The translations under genes were made by a program, and so were the position numbers. A model generated the notes under the pieces. That model made no database searches, was not told the DNA's origin, and worked only from the letters and a program-made list of their open reading frames with translations. From a virus (Duplodnaviria; Caudoviricetes): a stretch of 64,000 bases of DNA. Shown here piece after piece: positions 9,198-32,843 of the stretch. Location: IMG/VR virus record IMGVR_UViG_3300032218_003260, one strand, 5' to 3'. Numbering within the stretch: the stretch's first letter is position 1; every line of letters begins with the position of its first letter.

Positions 9198-10757
9198 CTA
9201 GAAAAAATCCGCGGCATCGTCGGATGTTACAGACTTCTTCGGATACGGTGGCGCTGCAGAAACGGTTGGCGCGGCCGCAGATGGCGCAGGAACTGAAGTC
9301 GGGGCGGGTTGCGGCATTAATTTACCCTGCTGAAAAGTGCCGCTCATTGTTGTCGCGCCCGGATTTGCTGCGCGAAGCTGTTGCGCCTGTTGCGCCATAC
9401 CCTGCTGACGATTTGCCATTTCCTGCCCCTTGCCTTTACCAAACACACGCGAATAAGCCGCCGGATCAACAGCATTCTTCTGCAGCTGCGCTAGCACAGC
9501 TGCGGCGCTTTTTTTAACTTCTTCGTCGCCCGAGTCTTCCGACTTTTCTTCGGACTTTTCTTCTTTTTCGTCGCTTTCGGGCTTTTTCTTTTTCTTGCCG
9601 ATACTGGAGCCGATGTTACTACCCAGATGCGCACCGGCACCCAAACCAGCAGCGCCGCCCGCTAACAGGCCGATACCGGCTCCGGGGCCGCCACCCAGCG
9701 CACCACCAGCGAGCGCGCCCATGATCCCGCCACCAGCGCCACCAGCCAGCCCGCCGATGCCTCCGCCAGCCACGCCGCCCAGCGTAGAGAGCAGCGACGA
9801 TTGTTTTTGCGCGCCGTAACGCGGCACATCGGGCGTGCCGGTTAACACGCGCATCAGCGGCGCCGTCATCTGTTGAAACGGCGATAATCCGTCTCGATCA
9901 AGACCGCCCACAATTCGTTTGAGGAGAAGAGTTTTGTTTACAGGAGCCACGGGTTTTGCGGCCGGTGTTTTAAGCGATCGGTAGGCTTCGCTCGCGGCCA
10001 GCGCACCACCGGCGCCAGCAGTCCCGGCAACAGCCGGATAAAACACGTCATCACTGGCTAAAGTTTTTGTCGCCTTGCCCAGACCCTTTTGAAGGCTTTT
10101 CAGAATAGATGAGCCTGCGCCAGCTTCTTTATTTTCCCACGACGGCTTGCCAATAGCAGCGCTGGCGCCAGCATAGCCCAGTCCAGCGCCGCCTACAGCG
10201 CCTGTTGTACCGCCGCGCACAATCGCATTGCGCAGATACGCGTCAGAGTATGGCGAAAGCTGTCCCGGGCTACGAATCGGGACTTTCTTGCCGCCGCGTG
10301 ACATCGTCCGGCCGCCGCGCTGTACAAACCGCTTGAGTGCGTCGGCTAATTGCGCCGCGCTCGGACCAAAGAGTGTTTTGCCGATACGAGGACTTGCCGC
10401 TGCGAGTGCAAGAGCCCCCAGCGCTCCGCCTATGCCGCCGCCAATCATGCCGGCACCCGTGCCAGTGCCTTTGACAGCGCCGCGGCCCAGTCCTTCCATA
10501 CGGTGCCCAGATGGCGACGTAACCGCGCCCAGACCAGCACCGACACCGGCTGTGATCGGCAGCGTCACAAACGCCTGTTTGCCCATGGTCTTACCAACCT
10601 GCATACCAAATTGCTGGGGCGTCACGCTCATTCGATCACCTGTAGCTTGCATATGGTTTTGAATCTTGCGCGACGCCACATGCTGCATGATCTTTTCAAA
10701 CAGCTTGCGCCGCGACAGCGCTAACTCAGTTAGTTTATTTACTGGAATCGGCGGCAT
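9198..10757 (-). CDS. Gly-rich modular protein with glycine-zipper segments, KxA family
   Basis: 519 aa; PQQFG...GKQAF, NKEAG, QKQSS, VKKSAA, QKNAV; GxxxG repeats. Confidence 0.6.
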   Translation of the reverse strand: MPPIPVNKLTELALSRRKLFEKIMQHVASRKIQNHMQATGDRMSVTPQQFGMQVGKTMGKQAFVTLPITAGVGAGLGAVTSPSGHRMEGLGRGAVKGTGTGAGMIGGGIGGALGALALAAASPRIGKTLFGPSAAQLADALKRFVQRGGRTMSRGGKKVPIRSPGQLSPYSDAYLRNAIVRGGTTGAVGGAGLGYAGASAAIGKPSWENKEAGAGSSILKSLQKGLGKATKTLASDDVFYPAVAGTAGAGGALAASEAYRSLKTPAAKPVAPVNKTLLLKRIVGGLDRDGLSPFQQMTAPLMRVLTGTPDVPRYGAQKQSSLLSTLGGVAGGGIGGLAGGAGGGIMGALAGGALGGGPGAGIGLLAGGAAGLGAGAHLGSNIGSSIGKKKKKPESDEKEEKSEEKSEDSGDEEVKKSAAAVLAQLQKNAVDPAAYSRVFGKGKGQEMANRQQGMAQQAQQLRAANPGATTMSGTFQQGKLMPQPAPTSVPAPSAAAPTVSAAPPYPKKSVTSDDAADFF

Positions 10758-13290
10758 TTTCGTCGTCCAGAATGCTGGCGCTGGGTTGTGGCTTGGCGTC
10801 TGGATATTTTAACAGCCGGCGCTTCTTCTTTGAAAGCGGCTTATTGGGCGGTGTTAATTTGAGCGTTTGAAACACGGCGCTCGCTTTTTCCTGCACTTCT
10901 TTGTCTTCTGTTAATTCTCCGCGCCGCCGCTTGAGATACTTTTGTAACTCTTGCTCCTGATAGGCTTGAAGCATGGTTTTTACTTTGTCAGCCCGAGTGC
11001 GCGAGACTAGCTTTGCTGGGTCAATCGCCCAGTGCTGTAGCGCCCAGCCACGTCTTGGCGTGGGATTAGACATAAACGGGCCGCCATGTCTGGCTTTGAA
11101 GCTTGCCCAGCGCTTGATCTGTCGCGTGTCTTCGTCGGGAATGCGGCGGCCTGAGTTATAGTTCTGGTACCACTCCAGCCAGCCCTTGGGATCATGCTCT
11201 GTCACCCATTCTGGCTTCCATTCGCCCAAGCTAGCTAACCGCGGGCCTTCTTTCTCATAGAGCGATTTGTACACACCCATGCGATGTAACTGGCCCGGTG
11301 TAAAATCAGGTTGGAAATCAGGCAGCTCGGCGGCGGCTCGTTTCAAAAGCGCAGACACAACGCACGTCACCTGACCCGGTTCCGCTTCGGTGACGTGTTT
11401 GTGACAGGAAACCGGAAAAACATCCCCGCGTTGTGCCTGCGCTATTTTGTCTTGCACGTACTTCTGCATCGGCAATTCTTCCAGCGTCGTATGCTCGTAC
11501 GGGTTGCCTAACAGATCAAGTTGTTTGATGGCAGCACGCAGTTTGTAGATTGCCGCATTACCTGCAGGTTCACGTCCCGGTTTCCATTTGGGTTGGGTGC
11601 CAAATTTGTGCTTTTCAACTAAATCGTCGTCAGACCACGTCTTGCCTGTGTCGACGTGAAACCGGCCCATAAGTTTAGCCGTGTCTAAGTCTGGCGTAAC
11701 ATAACTGCCAGCGGCCAATGTTTGTAAATCAGCATTGGGCGAACCATGGTAGAACGTGCGTTGTTCCGCCACTTTCTGCTTGCGATATTTGTCGCCCTCG
11801 TCTTGCAAAATCTTGCGGAAGATCTCGTTGAGCTGTTCTTTCTCGGCCGTGAGGTGTTCAAGTACTTCGTCGCCAGTACGCTCGCGCTGATATCCCATGA
11901 GCTTGCCGATGATGCTCGGATCTTGGCTGGCGCTTAGATATCTTTGGACTTGAACGTTCTTGAGTTCTTCCGGTAAGTCTCTGTGCGAGTCAAAGCGCAG
12001 ACCACGACCGCGAGCTTGCTGGCTGCGCGACTCATGCCAGTGCGGGTCTAGAAGCTGGATGAGACTCGTACCCTTGGTGGACAAGCCTTCAGCGCCAGCC
12101 GGGCCGATGAGTAACGCCCGGAGCTTGCCGGTGTTGTATGCGTCCACGGCAGCTTGGCGCGCCTTTGTGCTAACGCCGCCGTGGAAAAACGCATGCGGGA
12201 TCTTGGCTTTCTCTAGGCCAGCAGCGTAGGGGGCCAAGCCAGAGTCAATAAAGTTGGAATAGATGATGGCTTTCTTGCGTTTGTCTTCGCCCAGCGTCTT
12301 TTGCAGGTTTTGAAACGCCGTCTGTAACTTTGCGCTCTGCTGAAACGCCTTGGCTGGATCTTTGTCAGCGCGAAAAGGCTGTGTACTGAGACTTACTTGA
12401 CGTAAACCAGTGAGGAAGCTGTTTAACTTCGCCAGCTCGTCTTTGGATAGCGGGAACTCTTGGTCCAACTTCCATAAGAACCCCGGCGGAATCTTCGTGC
12501 GAATAGCTTTTTGAATCTTGTCCTGCGCGGGAGACAGGGGCACACGCACGGTTTCTTCGTTAACATTCACGCCTTCAGGAGTCTTGCTCGGCTGGTAATC
12601 CACCTTGCCCTGTAGCAAGCTTCGCAATTCTTTCTCATTCTTCACCACGGGTTTCACACCGGGCTTCACGCCGCGCAGCCAGCCAAATAAGCCCGGTCGC
12701 ACAGTCTTATAGTCGATGTAGCGCTTCTCGAATTCCTCGGGCGTGATCGATTTGTTGTTCAGCATCGACAACAAGTTCGCCAAGTCCGTGGGCGAATTTG
12801 TGATCGGCGAGCCTGTGAGCAGCAGCAGGCGTTTGGCTTGAGCAGCAGCTTCCGCGGCGCCAGCAGAACTCGCGCTCCCCGGATTACGCAGCCTATGCGC
12901 CTCGTCCATGATGAGCGTTTTGGGCGGCGTTTGGAACTTCTTGCCCAAAGCTAATCCCGTGTAGCTCATGATCTCGGGGTTAGAATTCCGCGTGAACTTT
13001 TTGATCTCTTTATCGAAGTTACCGCGCAAGCTCGCCGGAACCACCACGCCATAGTCTTCGTTGTCTTGCTCTTTGGCCGCTTCAGCAGCAGCCAGAGACG
13101 AGAGTGATTTCCCGGAACCCAGCCCGTGATACACAAGCAGTCTGGGATCTGGGCCGGCAATACGGTCGGCAATCCGCTGCTGATGCTCTTGCAGCTGGAT
13201 TTCGGGAAGTAGTTCTGCGACTTTATGCCACAGGCCAGCCGGAAGCGCGGATGTCTTCGGCGCAATGTCGTCGTCGAGAATGCTGTTCAT
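10735..13290 (-). CDS. SNF2-like SF2 helicase fused to C-terminal ART-like and unknown domains
   Basis: YHGLGSGKS; IMDEAH; LTGSP; IIYSNF; GAEGLS; QARGRGLR; then FYHGS...YVTPDLDTA and a W-rich C-terminal domain. Confidence 0.85.
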   Translation of the reverse strand: MNSILDDDIAPKTSALPAGLWHKVAELLPEIQLQEHQQRIADRIAGPDPRLLVYHGLGSGKSLSSLAAAEAAKEQDNEDYGVVVPASLRGNFDKEIKKFTRNSNPEIMSYTGLALGKKFQTPPKTLIMDEAHRLRNPGSASSAGAAEAAAQAKRLLLLTGSPITNSPTDLANLLSMLNNKSITPEEFEKRYIDYKTVRPGLFGWLRGVKPGVKPVVKNEKELRSLLQGKVDYQPSKTPEGVNVNEETVRVPLSPAQDKIQKAIRTKIPPGFLWKLDQEFPLSKDELAKLNSFLTGLRQVSLSTQPFRADKDPAKAFQQSAKLQTAFQNLQKTLGEDKRKKAIIYSNFIDSGLAPYAAGLEKAKIPHAFFHGGVSTKARQAAVDAYNTGKLRALLIGPAGAEGLSTKGTSLIQLLDPHWHESRSQQARGRGLRFDSHRDLPEELKNVQVQRYLSASQDPSIIGKLMGYQRERTGDEVLEHLTAEKEQLNEIFRKILQDEGDKYRKQKVAEQRTFYHGSPNADLQTLAAGSYVTPDLDTAKLMGRFHVDTGKTWSDDDLVEKHKFGTQPKWKPGREPAGNAAIYKLRAAIKQLDLLGNPYEHTTLEELPMQKYVQDKIAQAQRGDVFPVSCHKHVTEAEPGQVTCVVSALLKRAAAELPDFQPDFTPGQLHRMGVYKSLYEKEGPRLASLGEWKPEWVTEHDPKGWLEWYQNYNSGRRIPDEDTRQIKRWASFKARHGGPFMSNPTPRRGWALQHWAIDPAKLVSRTRADKVKTMLQAYQEQELQKYLKRRRGELTEDKEVQEKASAVFQTLKLTPPNKPLSKKKRRLLKYPDAKPQPSASILDDENAADSSK

Positions 13291-29377: not shown

Positions 29378-29783
29378 TGGCTGGTTGAGAAGGCAACCAT
29401 TTACCCAAGCCCAACACCTAGCGAATGCGTTGGCACCATCGCGAAAGTCTCGACTCAGGGATGTGGTGCTAACGGGCATACTGGGTTTGCGGGGCTTGCA
29501 CGGTAACGAGTGATGTTACCCAAATAAGTGCTTACCTAGCCGCATAACAGTATTGCTACTACCCTCCCACAACATTAAGGAGCATAACTTCCCCCCGCAT
29601 TTCGCAGCGCTGTACACACGCTGCCGAGACAATAACCCGGGCGGGAGTCGAACCCGCAAGCCTTTCGGCACTGGAACCTAAATCCAGCGCGTCTGCCAGT
29701 TCCGCCACCGAGTTGAAAGATGTGGCTGGTTGATAGGGCAACCATTTAACCAAGCCCAACACCTAGCGAATGCGTTGGCACCA
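29378..29783. repeat. 61-bp near-identical direct repeat at 29378-29438 and 29723-29783
   Basis: TGGCTGGTTGA..GGCAACCATTTA.CCAAGCCCAACACCTAGCGAATGCGTTGGCACCA; differences fall mainly in a hairpin loop. Confidence 0.85.
29633..29714 (-). tRNA. tRNA-Leu(UAG)
   Basis: Cloverleaf with long variable arm; anticodon arm CTGGA-TTTAGGT-TCCAG; no encoded CCA. Confidence 0.92.
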
Positions 29784-29796
29784 CAATTTGTTTGTA

Positions 29797-29973
29797 CTAG
29801 ACGAGCTGCGGCCGAAGCTGTTTTTCAACTTCGGCTCTCAGATTTTCGACTGCCTCCAGACACTTCTGGCGGTTCTCGGGAGTTACGCTCTCGGCGTCCG
29901 CGATCGCTCGACGCGTCCAAGTCGTGCAATCTAAAATCGCCAACACTTGCGCCGGCGTCAAATGAAAAACCAT
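29797..29973 (-). CDS. hypothetical protein (58 aa)
   Basis: Not in the ORF track. AAAGGA RBS; MVFHLTPAQVLAILDC... Confidence 0.55.
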   Translation of the reverse strand: MVFHLTPAQVLAILDCTTWTRRAIADAESVTPENRQKCLEAVENLRAEVEKQLRPQLV

Positions 29974-29996
29974 TTGGTTCCTTTCTGTTAAAAAAG

Positions 29997-30233
29997 CTAT
30001 GACCCCATGAGCGTTGCGACTTGATCCAGCGTCGCGTTCTTCAAATCAAACGGCGCAGACCAATTGCCGGCGATTTCGATCGGCGTTTCGCTCTTGAGGA
30101 TAATGACGCGCACGAAATCATCCCGGCCATGACAATCGGACAACGCCGTCTTTGCAGCGTCCATGTCGTCGCTCTCGACGATAGCGACGCCAAAACCGGC
30201 ATTGCCCGGAACAAAACCCAACGCTGCAATCAT
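29997..30233 (-). CDS. hypothetical protein
   Basis: AAGGAGG RBS. Confidence 0.6.
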   Translation of the reverse strand: MIAALGFVPGNAGFGVAIVESDDMDAAKTALSDCHGRDDFVRVIILKSETPIEIAGNWSAPFDLKNATLDQVATLMGS

Positions 30234-30273
30234 GTTTTCCTCCTTCGCGTGGTGTTAAAAACAATCGCACCAT

Positions 30274-30346
30274 TGACCCCACGGGGATTCGAACCCCGGT
30301 AAACGGAACGAAAATCCGTTGTCCTAGGCCACTAGACGATGGGGCC
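30274..30346 (-). tRNA. tRNA-Glu(UUC)
   Basis: Cloverleaf; ACGGA-TTTTCGT-TCCGT. Confidence 0.92.
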
Positions 30347-30355
30347 AGTGTCGTC

Positions 30356-30541
30356 TCAGTCTACCTTTTCGACGTTTAACGCGATAAGAAAACCGCACAT
30401 TTGCGCGAACGTGATCAGCTGCTTCTCTTTGAGTTTGAAGAAATCTGCAAAGTGAGCAAACAGATCGCAGGGCGACAAGTCTGTGGGGTTCTGCGTTTCG
30501 CGCAACTTAGATATCAATTCGGCTGCTCGTTCCAGTGTCAT
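30356..30541 (-). CDS. hypothetical protein (61 aa)
   Basis: AAGGAG RBS, ATG 30541. Confidence 0.55.
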   Translation of the reverse strand: MTLERAAELISKLRETQNPTDLSPCDLFAHFADFFKLKEKQLITFAQMCGFLIALNVEKVD

Positions 30542-30577
30542 CTCGCTGCTCCTTCGTGTAAAGATAACAAAACCCAA

Positions 30578-30648
30578 TGGGCCGCCAAGGAATCGAACCT
30601 TGCATCGCGAGTTAATAAGACTCGCTTGCCTACCAGTTTCCGCGGCCC
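30578..30648 (-). tRNA. atypical tRNA-Ile(UAU), possibly a pseudo-tRNA
   Basis: Perfect acceptor stem GGGCCGC/GCGGCCC and T-arm; anticodon loop CUUAUUA; short non-pairing D-arm; U at position 37. Confidence 0.6.
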
Positions 30649-30711
30649 GCGTGGGTGGGGCGCCAGAGGCTTGGGCTACCTCCAGCGCCCCACCGTCAGC
30701 GAGTCTACGCT

Positions 30712-31074
30712 TCAGCGGTAGCGTTTGCACGCATACCACCGGCCATCCCTGCCACGCGCGACCCCTTGGTCTACGACCGCTCTGCCGCTGTTGCTGTAGC
30801 AGCAGTTGCCCAGCGCCTGTTCAGGCGTCGAGCCCGTGCCGACGCCTTCGTAGCCTGAGTTCCCGCCGTGATGTCCCATGCGGCCATTGCTGGCCTGAAG
30901 CTCGGCTACGCCCTGCGCCGAACCGGTGTGCCCGGCATAAGACGTAGCGTACGAGTAGGACTTGACGGGAGCCGGAACCTGAGACGGCGTGTAGTGGCGC
31001 CTATGTCGCGGGGCAGCATGCGCAACGCTGACCATCGAAAGAACGACTGCTACACACATGAGAAAACGAAACAT
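30712..31074 (-). CDS. small secreted protein, CAP-like (GHHGG...EGVG...CC)
   Basis: Signal peptide from ATG 31074; MGHHGGNSGYEGVGTGSTPEQALGNCC...WYACKRY. Confidence 0.65.
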   Translation of the reverse strand: MFRFLMCVAVVLSMVSVAHAAPRHRRHYTPSQVPAPVKSYSYATSYAGHTGSAQGVAELQASNGRMGHHGGNSGYEGVGTGSTPEQALGNCCYSNSGRAVVDQGVARGRDGRWYACKRYR

Positions 31075-31162
31075 AACGATCCTCCGTGATCCTGTCGCGG
31101 GTGTGCGCGACGTCAAAAAAAGAACCCCACACCGGGTTACACAAACAGACGGTTTCCCGTCT

Positions 31163-31537
31163 TTACGCGGCAGCGAGCTTACGGCGTTTGGCCGCAGCGC
31201 GGCGCAGCTTGACCTCCGGCAAACCCCGCGGACGGCACAATGCGTACTGTACCGCGGCAGCCAGCAGCGCGTTCGAGTTTCGCTGAGAGAACACGTATCC
31301 ACCGTTCTTGTCGTTTGCCAGAAACGGATTACCCTTCCACTTATCAGGGCTCTTGGGATACTTCTTGACACGCTCGTCGAGCCACACTTCGGCCGCATGC
31401 TGGCGAACTTTGTAGAACGTGTTCATCGCCATGGCCCGCAGACCGAGCGTGCGACGATACACATTAACCTGCTCAAAAATCTCCCGCATGAACGACCGAC
31501 AACCGCAGCCCTTGGGGGCAACAAACTGGATCTTCAT
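31163..31537 (-). CDS. hypothetical protein
   Basis: AAGGAG RBS; 124 aa. Confidence 0.6.
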   Translation of the reverse strand: MKIQFVAPKGCGCRSFMREIFEQVNVYRRTLGLRAMAMNTFYKVRQHAAEVWLDERVKKYPKSPDKWKGNPFLANDKNGGYVFSQRNSNALLAAAVQYALCRPRGLPEVKLRRAAAKRRKLAAA

Positions 31538-31663
31538 CAGAATCTCCTTCTATCATCCCTGAACTTACAGCTGTTACGCGCAGCTGTTTCCCATAGAAAT
31601 CATCGCCGCGTAAAGACGATGATTGTTTTGATATCAACGGGATTGAAGAGTAACCCGGATAAA

Positions 31664-31737
31664 TAGGCGCAAAGGGACTCGAACCCCTAACCCCCTGCAT
31701 GTAAAGCAGGTGCTCTGACCAATTGAGCTATGCGCCT
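31664..31737 (-). tRNA. tRNA-Val(UAC)
   Basis: Cloverleaf; CCTGC-TTTACAT-GCAGG. Confidence 0.93.
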
Positions 31738-31743
31738 GCGAGA

Positions 31744-32100
31744 CTACGCCTCGCGCTCTCGCTCGCGGCGTTGACGCCGACGAGCCCACGGAGACCGGTT
31801 CCAGTACCAGCCCCGCCAGCGATTGCAATACGCACGCCAGCGCCGACGCAACTTGTGATACCACTTGTTGCGGCCGATACCGGTGAGGTACTGCTGCGTC
31901 CAGAATTCCATCGACTCGTCTGACGTACCATCCACGTAGCTTTCGCCGCAGTCGAAGCATCGGTTCGCCGGCACACGATACATAGGAACTTTGTGCATTG
32001 TTCCATCAATGCGCATCGTCACGATGTCGTTGAACTCGACCGCTTCGATGCGACCACCGCAGTGAATGCACTTCAACGACTTGTAAACCGGATTACCCAT
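31744..32100 (-). CDS. YgiT/MqsA-type zinc-finger protein
   Basis: CIHCGG...VPANRCFDCGESY; GGAGG RBS at ATG 32100. Confidence 0.7.
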   Translation of the reverse strand: MGNPVYKSLKCIHCGGRIEAVEFNDIVTMRIDGTMHKVPMYRVPANRCFDCGESYVDGTSDESMEFWTQQYLTGIGRNKWYHKLRRRWRAYCNRWRGWYWNRSPWARRRQRREREREA

Positions 32101-32112
32101 ACAGCCCTCCAA

Positions 32113-32198
32113 TGGCCAAGGCGGGACTCGAACCCGCACGGGAAATTACTCCCAGCGGATTTTAAGTCCGCTGCGTCTGCCGATTTCGCCACTTAGCC
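32113..32198 (-). tRNA. tRNA-Leu(UAA)
   Basis: Cloverleaf with long variable arm; GCGGA-CTTAAAA-TCCGC. Confidence 0.94.
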
Positions 32199-32207
32199 AG
32201 CCGCCCG

Positions 32208-32504
32208 CTAGACCAGCGCAGGCTCTTGCGGAGCCGGATACTGCTCGGGATGTGCGATGTGCCGAAATCTATCTTTACCAGTACGGCTGTGCGTGCCGAA
32301 CTTGTCTCGGCTGTGCATCGCATCGCGAACGTATTCAAACGCATGTTCCAGAGTCAGAAACTGCCCGTACGTCATCGACTGCCCGGCGCCGATTTTGCCG
32401 GCGAGATCCTGCGTTATCGCAAGCATCTTTTCCAACTCGATACCGATACGCTCGTTGTAGTAATCGGCCGTAGCTTCGTTGTCATCTCGTTCTTGTGTCA
32501 CCAT
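32208..32504 (-). CDS. hypothetical protein
   Basis: About 98 aa; start uncertain (32504 or 32528). Confidence 0.5.
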   Translation of the reverse strand: MVTQERDDNEATADYYNERIGIELEKMLAITQDLAGKIGAGQSMTYGQFLTLEHAFEYVRDAMHSRDKFGTHSRTGKDRFRHIAHPEQYPAPQEPALV

Positions 32505-32715
32505 TCCAGACGTACCTCTTGTCGCCAATCTGGCACCACCACCGCTGCCCGTCGTTCCAGTAGACGGGAGTCACAGACGGAGATGGCGGTTGCAGCGTTG
32601 TCGGCGCTGGGTGCGCCTTCTGATACTCTTCATAGCTCTGCCACGCGATTCCCGCAAGCATCAGCAACGCCGTCACCAAACCAATCAGATTTCCCTTGAT
32701 TTCGATACCACTCAT
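32482..32715 (-). CDS. small membrane protein
   Basis: AAGGAGG RBS; single TM segment. Confidence 0.6.
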   Translation of the reverse strand: MSGIEIKGNLIGLVTALLMLAGIAWQSYEEYQKAHPAPTTLQPPSPSVTPVYWNDGQRWWCQIGDKRYVWNGDTRTR

Positions 32716-32764
32716 TTCAAAACCTCCTTGTTTGGAAATGACCTTTGAACAACCAATCGAACAA

Positions 32765-32837
32765 TGGGCCCTGTGGGATTCGAACCCACGACCAAAGGAT
32801 TAAAAGTCCCTTGCTCTACCAACTGAGCTAAAGGCCC
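32765..32837 (-). tRNA. tRNA-Lys(UUU)
   Basis: Cloverleaf; AGGGA-CTTTTAA-TCCTT. Confidence 0.95.
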
Positions 32838-32843
32838 ACGCGC

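Follow-up and report, generated by a model that had tools for sequence, protein, structure and literature searches.

The window analysed here, a stretch of 64,000 nucleotides from the IMG/VR record IMGVR_UViG_3300032218_003260, belongs to an uncultured phage of ~200 kb. On its minus strand, at 10735..13290, it carries an open reading frame (ORF) for a protein of 851 amino acids (aa), which we call P0001. In the reading proposed here, to which we give a probability of about 55%, P0001 is a polyvalent polyprotein carried in the phage head, and it is probably divided at K-x-[AS] junctions into separate enzymes that are injected into the host. Its presence in the virion is suggested by homology, through the helicase Gp217 of Salmonella phage Arash, and cleavage by the placement and avoidance of the K-x-[AS] motif in the sequence.

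Polyvalent proteins were brought forward by Iyer, Burroughs, Anand, de Souza and Aravind in 2017, who predicted head packaging and possible proteolytic release (PMC5512222). The concept was extended to NAD/ADP-ribose systems in 2022 (PMC9503650).

In our reading, the chain would run from a leader through an SNF2 DNA-translocase, an ADP-ribosyltransferase (ART)-fold module of the H-Y-E type (A1), a unit of ~35 residues (A2), a helical domain (B) and a basic tail (C), with K-x-[AS] before each. P0001 would be made late and packed into the capsid, and a phage protease recognising K-x-[AS] would cut it into a Gp217-like helicase, a free ART of ~12 kDa and a free B of ~18 kDa. The freed modules would enter the host along with the DNA. 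There, the ATPase would probably act on the injected DNA or together with the RNA polymerase of the phage. The ART would probably modify either a nucleic-acid end or a protein of the host, using nicotinamide adenine dinucleotide (NAD+).

An initial annotation of this ORF, made from the sequence, had described an SNF2 helicase fused to an ART-like domain, with K-x-A junctions, and had inferred that the two are packaged and released as separate modules. The motifs that it quoted are all found in P0001, at or near the coordinates it gave for them: KVAE at residues 506-509 (11764-11775), QRTFYHGS at 510-517, YVTPDLDTA at 530-538, KIAQ at 615-618, KRAAA at 650-654, ELPDFQPDFTP at 655-665, GWLEWY at 703-708, QIKRW at 724-728 and EKASA at 801-805. 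The features of the ORF, and the protease gene beside it, are listed in table 1.

Modular architecture of P0001 and its relatives

The helicase assignment holds. Residues ~24-505 score above the Pfam gathering cut-offs for SNF2-rel_dom (42.6 bits; cut-off 24.9) and Helicase_C (44.3; 23.5) and match phrog_62 at 6e-44, and the Walker A motif, the DEAH (DExH) box and the motif VI arginines are intact. The nearest solved relatives in the PDB are Rad26/CSB-type proteins, SsoRad54 and RAD54, with a weak match to vaccinia NPH-I, a virion-packaged ATPase that serves a packaged RNA polymerase.

The tail behind the helicase is made of movable parts. With residues 505-851 as the query, a search restricted to lengths of 468-1490 aa gave 254 proteins, and an exhaustive HMMER search with the tail gave 591 matches, from single-module proteins of ~110 aa up to chains of 2184 aa. 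When pieces of the tail were mapped onto the relatives it resolved into four units: A1 (residues 509-614), A2 (618-649), B (653-801) and C (805-851). Their order varies around the helicase (HEL), the arrangements including HEL-B-C, HEL-A2-B-C, B-A2-HEL, B-A1-HEL and A1-B-HEL. A1-B is also joined to DUF6321 and a weak Zn-peptidase match in proteins with no BLASTP match to the helicase module. Across the relatives of P0001, the repertoire further takes in NUDIX, kinases, InPase, 2H-SAK, ligase, PAP2 and HD domains. The question of whether homologous helicases carry different tails, raised at the outset, is thus answered: tails and module orders both vary, and the fusion is not invariant. The closest relatives, in which the helicase is 96% identical, have the order HEL-B-C, and A1 and A2 have therefore been inserted in this phage. 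Neither A1 nor B was found a second time within the window.

Module A2 is about 32-35 residues long (QAQRGDVFPVSCHKH...), has K-x-A at both ends and is mobile between proteins. If the junctions were cleaved, it would be set free as a small peptide.

Table 1. Coordinates of P0001, its modules and junctions, and the adjacent protease gene in the window.
Feature	Coordinates	Strand	Remarks
Whole ORF, P0001, 851 aa	10735..13290	-	stop codon included
N-terminal leader, residues 1-22 (MNSILDDD...PKTSALPAGLWH)	13225..13290	-	SILDD at 13270-13284; conserved K-T-S residues 12-14
Junction K23-V-A25	13216..13224	-	start of helicase-module homology in 127 of 127 distinct contexts
SNF2/SWI2 ATPase core, residues 26-505	11776..13215	-	GSGKS 58-62, DEAH 129-132, QARGRGLR 425-432
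Junction K506-V-A508	11767..11775	-	between helicase and A1
Module A1, residues 509-614	11449..11766	-	minimal ART-fold domain
Putative A1 triad H515, Y530, E599	11746-11748, 11701-11703, 11494-11496	-	codons in the order of the residues
Junction K615-I-A617	11440..11448	-	between A1 and A2
Module A2, residues 618-649 (QAQRGDVFPVSC...)	11344..11439	-	short unit; moves independently; between B and helicase in relatives
Junction K650-R-A652	11335..11343	-	between A2 and B
Module B, residues 653-801	10888..11334	-	Trp/Arg-rich helical domain; FxPDYTP...GWLEWY...GRR...QIKRW...NPTPRR
Junction K802-A-S804	10879..10887	-	between B and C; EK-[AST]-[SG] in relatives
Module C, residues 805-851	10738..10878	-	basic tail (KKKRRLLKYP); ends in second SILDD, 10762-10776
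Trypsin-fold serine protease, 282 aa	13303..14151	-	hydrophobic N-terminus; Pfam Trypsin 2.9e-20

Module A1 as a small ART-fold domain

The initial annotation had likened FYHG(S/T) followed by a Y-x-T strand to Arr/ART-fold ADP-ribosyltransferases, and the segment running from FYHGS through YVT to N-P-Y-E-H is modelled with high confidence as an ART fold. The AlphaFold2 model of A1 reaches a predicted local distance difference test (pLDDT) score of 94.9 and a predicted template modelling (pTM) score of 0.83. When this model was compared with 48,161 PDB representative chains using an aligner without Foldseek, almost all of the top 50 matches were ART folds (Z 7.1 to 3.6). The best were the NAD lobes of KptA/Tpt1 (Z 7.0-7.1; root-mean-square deviation 2.6 Å over 74 residues), followed by the anti-CRISPR entry 6kyf (Z 6.4), which we take to be the ADP-ribosylating AcrIF11, the Rhs toxin TreX (6.4), diphtheria toxin (6.3) and Arr (6.1). 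PARPs, pertussis-like toxins, Scabin, TccC3, ParT and RES toxins came lower. Foldseek against the PDB ranked PARP16, Arr and KptA best, none of them significantly (best E 0.65), and re-alignment of its own candidates agrees with the ART result. Since no Z reaches 8, the case for an ART fold rests on the uniformity of the list, on residue conservation and on matches that span model residues 1-107, the full length of the model.

In an alignment of 19 family members Y-H-G-S-P, G-S, W-x-D-x-D and E-H (within N-P-Y-E-H) are invariant. H515 and E599 (H10 and E94 of the module) never vary, and Y530 (Y25) has a single exception, a Trp. In the predicted structure, with strands at model residues 5-12, 25-27 and 95-97, H515 lies in strand 1, Y530 in strand 2 and E599 just before a late strand. 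These positions would correspond to an H-Y-E arrangement, a putative triad placed on modelled strands, and the family would be a small H-Y-E branch of the ART fold with a predicted NAD+-dependent activity. The HG[ST] motif of strand 1 and the aromatic-Glu motif of the late strand occur in PARP and diphtheria-toxin-type enzymes.

Sequence searches place this family outside the libraries consulted. A1 drew no match in Pfam up to E 10, NCBIfam, PHROGs or PDB sequence profiles; neither A1 nor nine family members matched any Pfam entry, ART-PolyVal (PF18760) included, up to E 10; no relative was found among 50,697 GenBank phages even at E 1, nor by pattern search in IMG/VR. Neighbours of A1 in the language-model Atlas fall in clusters with ART-PolyVal PF18760 (19% of members) and PARP (16%), which we treat as a lead only. 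Tpt1/KptA, Arr, the 6kyf protein, PARP and diphtheria toxin have the ART fold in common with A1 (Z 6-7 over 69-81 aligned residues), but with no detectable sequence similarity in the PDB and Pfam hidden Markov model (HMM) searches, and A1 is smaller and has no Tpt1 N-lobe.

Three known types were considered for A1 and set aside. The polyvalent-protein ARTs already described (ART-PolyVal, PF18760, of the Tox-ART-HYD2 clade) have an H-Y-D active site with the Asp in strand 5 (PMC5512222); A1 has an invariant Glu in N-P-Y-E-H instead, and the PF18760 HMM does not match it. An Alt/VIP2-type ART was rejected because strand 1 reads Y-H-G-S, without an Arg, and no Alt or VIP2 match was found in Pfam or PHROG. 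A two-lobe Tpt1/KptA was rejected because the match covers the NAD lobe only (chain residues 91-180) and the 106-residue module is bounded by other modules.

A different reading of A1 keeps the fold and drops the protein target. A1 would then be an NADase, an enzyme of Tpt1/KptA or DarT type with bases or ends of nucleic acids as substrates, or a module that binds NAD or ADP-ribose without catalysis. The identity of the best structural matches points this way, as do the very small size of the domain (~105 residues) and its company elsewhere: A1 is fused in other proteins to NUDIX, InPase, 2H-SAK phosphoesterase, P-loop kinase, HD, acylphosphatase and SNF2 domains, partners that fit NAD/ADP-ribose or nucleic-acid-end chemistry and largely form a nucleotide and RNA-end-processing set. 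However, the N-terminal RNA-binding lobe of Tpt1 is missing, the catalytic Arg/His/Arg/Arg set of Tpt1 has no counterpart in the invariant columns, and the series HGS...Y-x-T...Y-E is typical of PARP and diphtheria-toxin-type transferases. The invariance of H, Y and E also argues for catalysis. We therefore regard this alternative as rather unlikely, and keep the H-Y-E transferase as the preferred assignment.

As a separate observation, the ART matches to A1 include, at Z 4.8, residues 1418-1602 of PDB 9k3a chain B, a phage ejection protein of solved structure from the pre-ejectosome of cyanophage A4. Ejected proteins of phages may, on this hint, contain ART-like domains more often than annotation shows.

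Module B, a helical domain with conserved Trp, Arg and Asp

Module B is the commonest unit of the tail and has invariant Trp, Arg and Asp positions. Its model is confident and helical (pLDDT 91.5). A wide PDB search and BFVD gave no convincing fold match, the best hit (Z 4.8, the C-terminal domain of mimivirus R596) lying below the noise level quoted for helical models. Likewise, no family match was found in Pfam (E up to 10), PHROGs, NCBIfam or PDB profiles, and the Atlas gave no usable one. From its conserved basic residues, our guess would be that B binds a nucleotide or nucleic acid.

A stand-alone homologue of B (33% identity) is encoded by the Vibrio jumbo phage pVa-21 (KY499642.1, 46886-47359), between pVa21_055 and pVa21_056. 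The ORF is unannotated and lies in a mostly unannotated stretch near thymidylate synthase and a GTP pyrophosphokinase gene.

A K-x-[AS] motif at the module junctions

The initial annotation had pointed to K-x-A at the junctions. The position of the motif is indeed non-random with respect to module boundaries, although its raw count is not enriched: five K-x-A are observed in P0001 against 7.1 expected from composition, and enrichment as such was rejected. Moreover, the junction in EKASA reads K-A-S, so that the motif is better written K-x-[AS]. Six of the seven K-x-[AS] sites in P0001 lie at unit boundaries or in the leader, and only K339 falls inside a fold.

The module boundaries used for this comparison were defined independently of the motif, by where homology starts and stops in about 260 shuffled relatives. 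Homology to the helicase module starts exactly at K-x-[A/S/G] in 127 of 127 distinct contexts, whatever module stands upstream. Within -9..+2 of internal module starts, K-x-[AS] is found for the helicase in 116 of 116 cases, for A2 in 13 of 15, for B in 116 of 159 and for A1 in 13 of 23, against a background of 7-11% at randomly chosen positions in these proteins. In proteins that begin with B, the motif drops to background (9/67). The junction consensus is roughly E-K-Q-[AS]-[AED]-L. Gp217 of phage Arash begins immediately behind the motif position, which places the motif outside the helicase fold.

Within folds, K-x-[AS] is under-represented, ranking among the lowest 0.6% (helicase), 7.9% (B) and 12.3% (A1) when calibrated against all comparable gapped patterns in the same sequences. 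A first depletion figure of 0.20, obtained against simple control tripeptides, was overstated and was discarded, as all gapped dipeptides show a wide scatter from relatedness. Motif counts per ORF across the window are too small to inform.

A related pattern appears in the neighbourhood. Four unrelated neighbouring genes on the minus strand (starts 9105, 6894, 6189 and 5409) encode proteins that begin M-[NR]-[AP]-[YF]-E-F-G, with E-K-x-[AG] following within 10-16 residues. The sequence is a candidate for a shared capsid-targeting leader with the same cut-site motif, and it recalls the short cleaved capsid-targeting leaders of T4 internal proteins.

A virion-borne relative of the helicase module

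The nearest cultured homologue of the helicase is Gp217 of Salmonella phage Arash (OQ632216.1; 33-34% identity), which is encoded next to the gene for the beta' subunit of RNA polymerase (RNAP). The whole of Gp217 (472 residues) aligns to P0001 residues 28-499 and to nothing else. In purified Arash virions, mass spectrometry detected Gp217 with 100% coverage, 38 unique peptides and 1148 spectra, compared with 1210 for RNAP beta' (Gp216) and 1333 for the major capsid protein (PMC10585845). The suggestion that the helicase is packaged thereby gains support from homology, through an orthologue that is an abundant virion protein. Gp217 differs in being the helicase module alone; leader, K-x-A and the modules A1, A2, B and C are all missing. 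A tblastn search with its neighbours Gp207-Gp226, the capsid protein included, found no homologue in the window.

Weighing the polyprotein reading

Several observations count against P0001 being a processed head cargo. The fold matches of A1 stop short of Z 8, with Foldseek E-values of 0.65 or worse. Depletion of the motif is clear only in the helicase, and K-x-A taken alone stands at about the 10th percentile. In addition, K-x-[AGS] is kept at the helicase start behind leaders of 6-7 residues (9/11), and the motif could thus be a part of the module itself. The N-terminus of the trypsin-fold enzyme encoded next door resembles a signal or anchor sequence, and an Asp equivalent to trypsin Asp189 is missing six residues before the GDSGG serine (by a hand count and not an alignment). 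Module B sits in pVa-21 in a non-structural context, among nucleotide-metabolism genes. Arash Gp217, for its part, has none of the tail modules and is only 33-34% identical, and its authors warn that abundant enzymes may be carried over, with 116 proteins detected in their preparation (PMC10585845).

The main rival takes P0001 to be an unprocessed multi-domain enzyme in which K-x-[AS]-[EDA]-L serves only as a conserved linker or as a joint for recombination. The ART and B would then act in cis, tethered to the translocase, e.g. modifying DNA or RNA polymerase while the motor moves. It draws its standing from the retention of the motif at the helicase start even with almost nothing upstream. 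The swapping of modules at the junctions is also obvious, and a common short sequence could promote in-frame recombination; the weak depletion inside B and A1 fits as well. However, a joint gives no reason for the avoidance of the motif in the helicase fold. The same motif ends the short leaders of single-module proteins and of the unrelated neighbours, where there is nothing to join, and the Arash helicase is a free-standing virion protein that starts just past the motif position. Avoidance in the helicase and occurrence in leaders thus counter what the short leaders favour, and we judge an unprocessed enzyme unlikely. The weakest alternative, that P0001 is an intracellular accessory ATPase of transcription or replication and that the Arash signal is carry-over of an abundant late protein, can appeal to the caution of the Arash authors and to the setting of module B in pVa-21, but is improbable, as Gp217 equals RNAP beta' in spectra and comes near the major capsid protein, and as the gene for P0001 belongs to a conserved block whose other products include polyvalent-type proteins and proteins with leaders.

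Comparison with known systems

The processed-cargo reading places P0001 closest to the polyvalent proteins of PMC5512222. The likeness lies in unrelated enzymes (SWI2/SNF2 ATPase, ART) in one chain, variable architecture and phage origin, with InPase, NUDIX, kinases and peptidases among the relatives; P0001 itself holds SNF2, an ART fold and B in one phage polypeptide whose architectures vary. It differs in that its ART is putatively H-Y-E, its SNF2 module has no methylase partner and the chain includes no peptidase. Keyword look-ups covering part of the text of PMC5512222 returned no recurrent K-x-[AS] junction tag.

T4 Alt, to which the protein had first been compared, is like P0001 in the proposed logic only, i.e. 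an ART packed in the head, trimmed by a maturation protease and injected with the DNA. Alt is a separate protein and has no sequence or clade relationship to A1. The protease motif and the leader of T4 reportedly differ from those of P0001. The comparison thus stands for function and falls for descent: Alt belongs to the R-S-E clade of ARTs (Alt/VIP2; PMC5512222), whereas A1 is putatively H-Y-E.

A precedent for the processing itself comes from SPN3US/phiKZ-type phages, in which many proteins of the head and of ejection are trimmed according to a three-residue motif. The SPN3US prohead protease gp245 cuts head and ejection proteins at such a motif, mapped experimentally; uncleaved head proteins in these phages often lack it; and SPN3US packages its own RNA polymerase (PMC10052503). 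The SPN3US motif is A-x-E, cut after Glu and removing mostly N-terminal propeptides, whereas the candidate K-x-[AS] lies between enzymatic modules and is known from sequences.

The ends of P0001 and its genomic context

The peptide x-S-I-L-[DG]-[DE] is found at both ends of the polyprotein, at residues 3-7 and 839-843, inside a 27/31-nt direct DNA repeat. The next gene has its start codon (10757) within the 3' copy. We considered the repeat as a DNA element and rejected this, as the SIL[DG] peptide is kept in relatives despite synonymous codon changes. Because both copies are retained in this manner, the repeats are a signal at the level of the peptide, and may serve as a tag for docking or targeting.

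The window is phage DNA, with nearly all genes on one strand, five tRNAs, and tail-fibre and baseplate genes at 37-44 kb. No DNA-level relative of it was found among the 50,697 GenBank phages; relatives are uncultured viral contigs of about 200 kb. Across 31 syntenic IMG/VR loci the gene order is kept: polyprotein, 671-aa protein, trypsin-fold protease, helicase protein and Gly-rich protein. In most of these loci the protease gene immediately precedes the helicase gene on its upstream side. Its product is one candidate for the processing enzyme, with an ejected effector or a periplasmic enzyme as alternatives.

Directly downstream of the helicase gene, at 9198-10757 on the minus strand, is a gene for a 519-aa Gly/Ala-rich protein with glycine-zipper-like stretches and an acidic and Lys-rich segment. 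It has a weak tape-measure match (phrog_167, 1e-3), and its synteny is kept while its sequence is very variable. This protein may be a membrane-active ejection protein. The five tRNA genes (Leu-TAG, Glu, Val, Leu-TAA and Lys) form a cluster at 29633-32838 on the minus strand.

Implications

New here are the putative H-Y-E mini-ART family, domain B, the junction motif with its statistics, and the finding that one of the units set off by the motif corresponds to a protein proven to be in the virion. A bolder extension, which we hold only tentatively and at less than even odds, is that a large group of lake phages of ~200 kb uses K-x-[AS] as the recognition site of a protease for capsid maturation, that the modules (the SNF2 motor, the mini-ART, domain B, NUDIX, kinases and others) are interchangeable cassettes recombining at the cuts, that each phage injects its own mix of enzymes, and that A1 is a new family of active NAD+-dependent transferases.

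Multi-enzyme proteins injected by phages were predicted in 2017, and the P0001 family bears on how one chain yields several enzymes. It offers a candidate cut site that is easily mutated, together with natural experiments in which the same modules are fused, re-ordered or alone, and it has a cultured relative, Arash, whose motor module is demonstrably in the virion. A1 and B add a compact ART-fold family and a widespread domain without a known fold, both missed by current domain libraries and found, among the 591 matches to the tail, alone as well as in proteins of up to ~1,700-2,200 aa. Both are plausible early-infection effectors or counter-defence enzymes.

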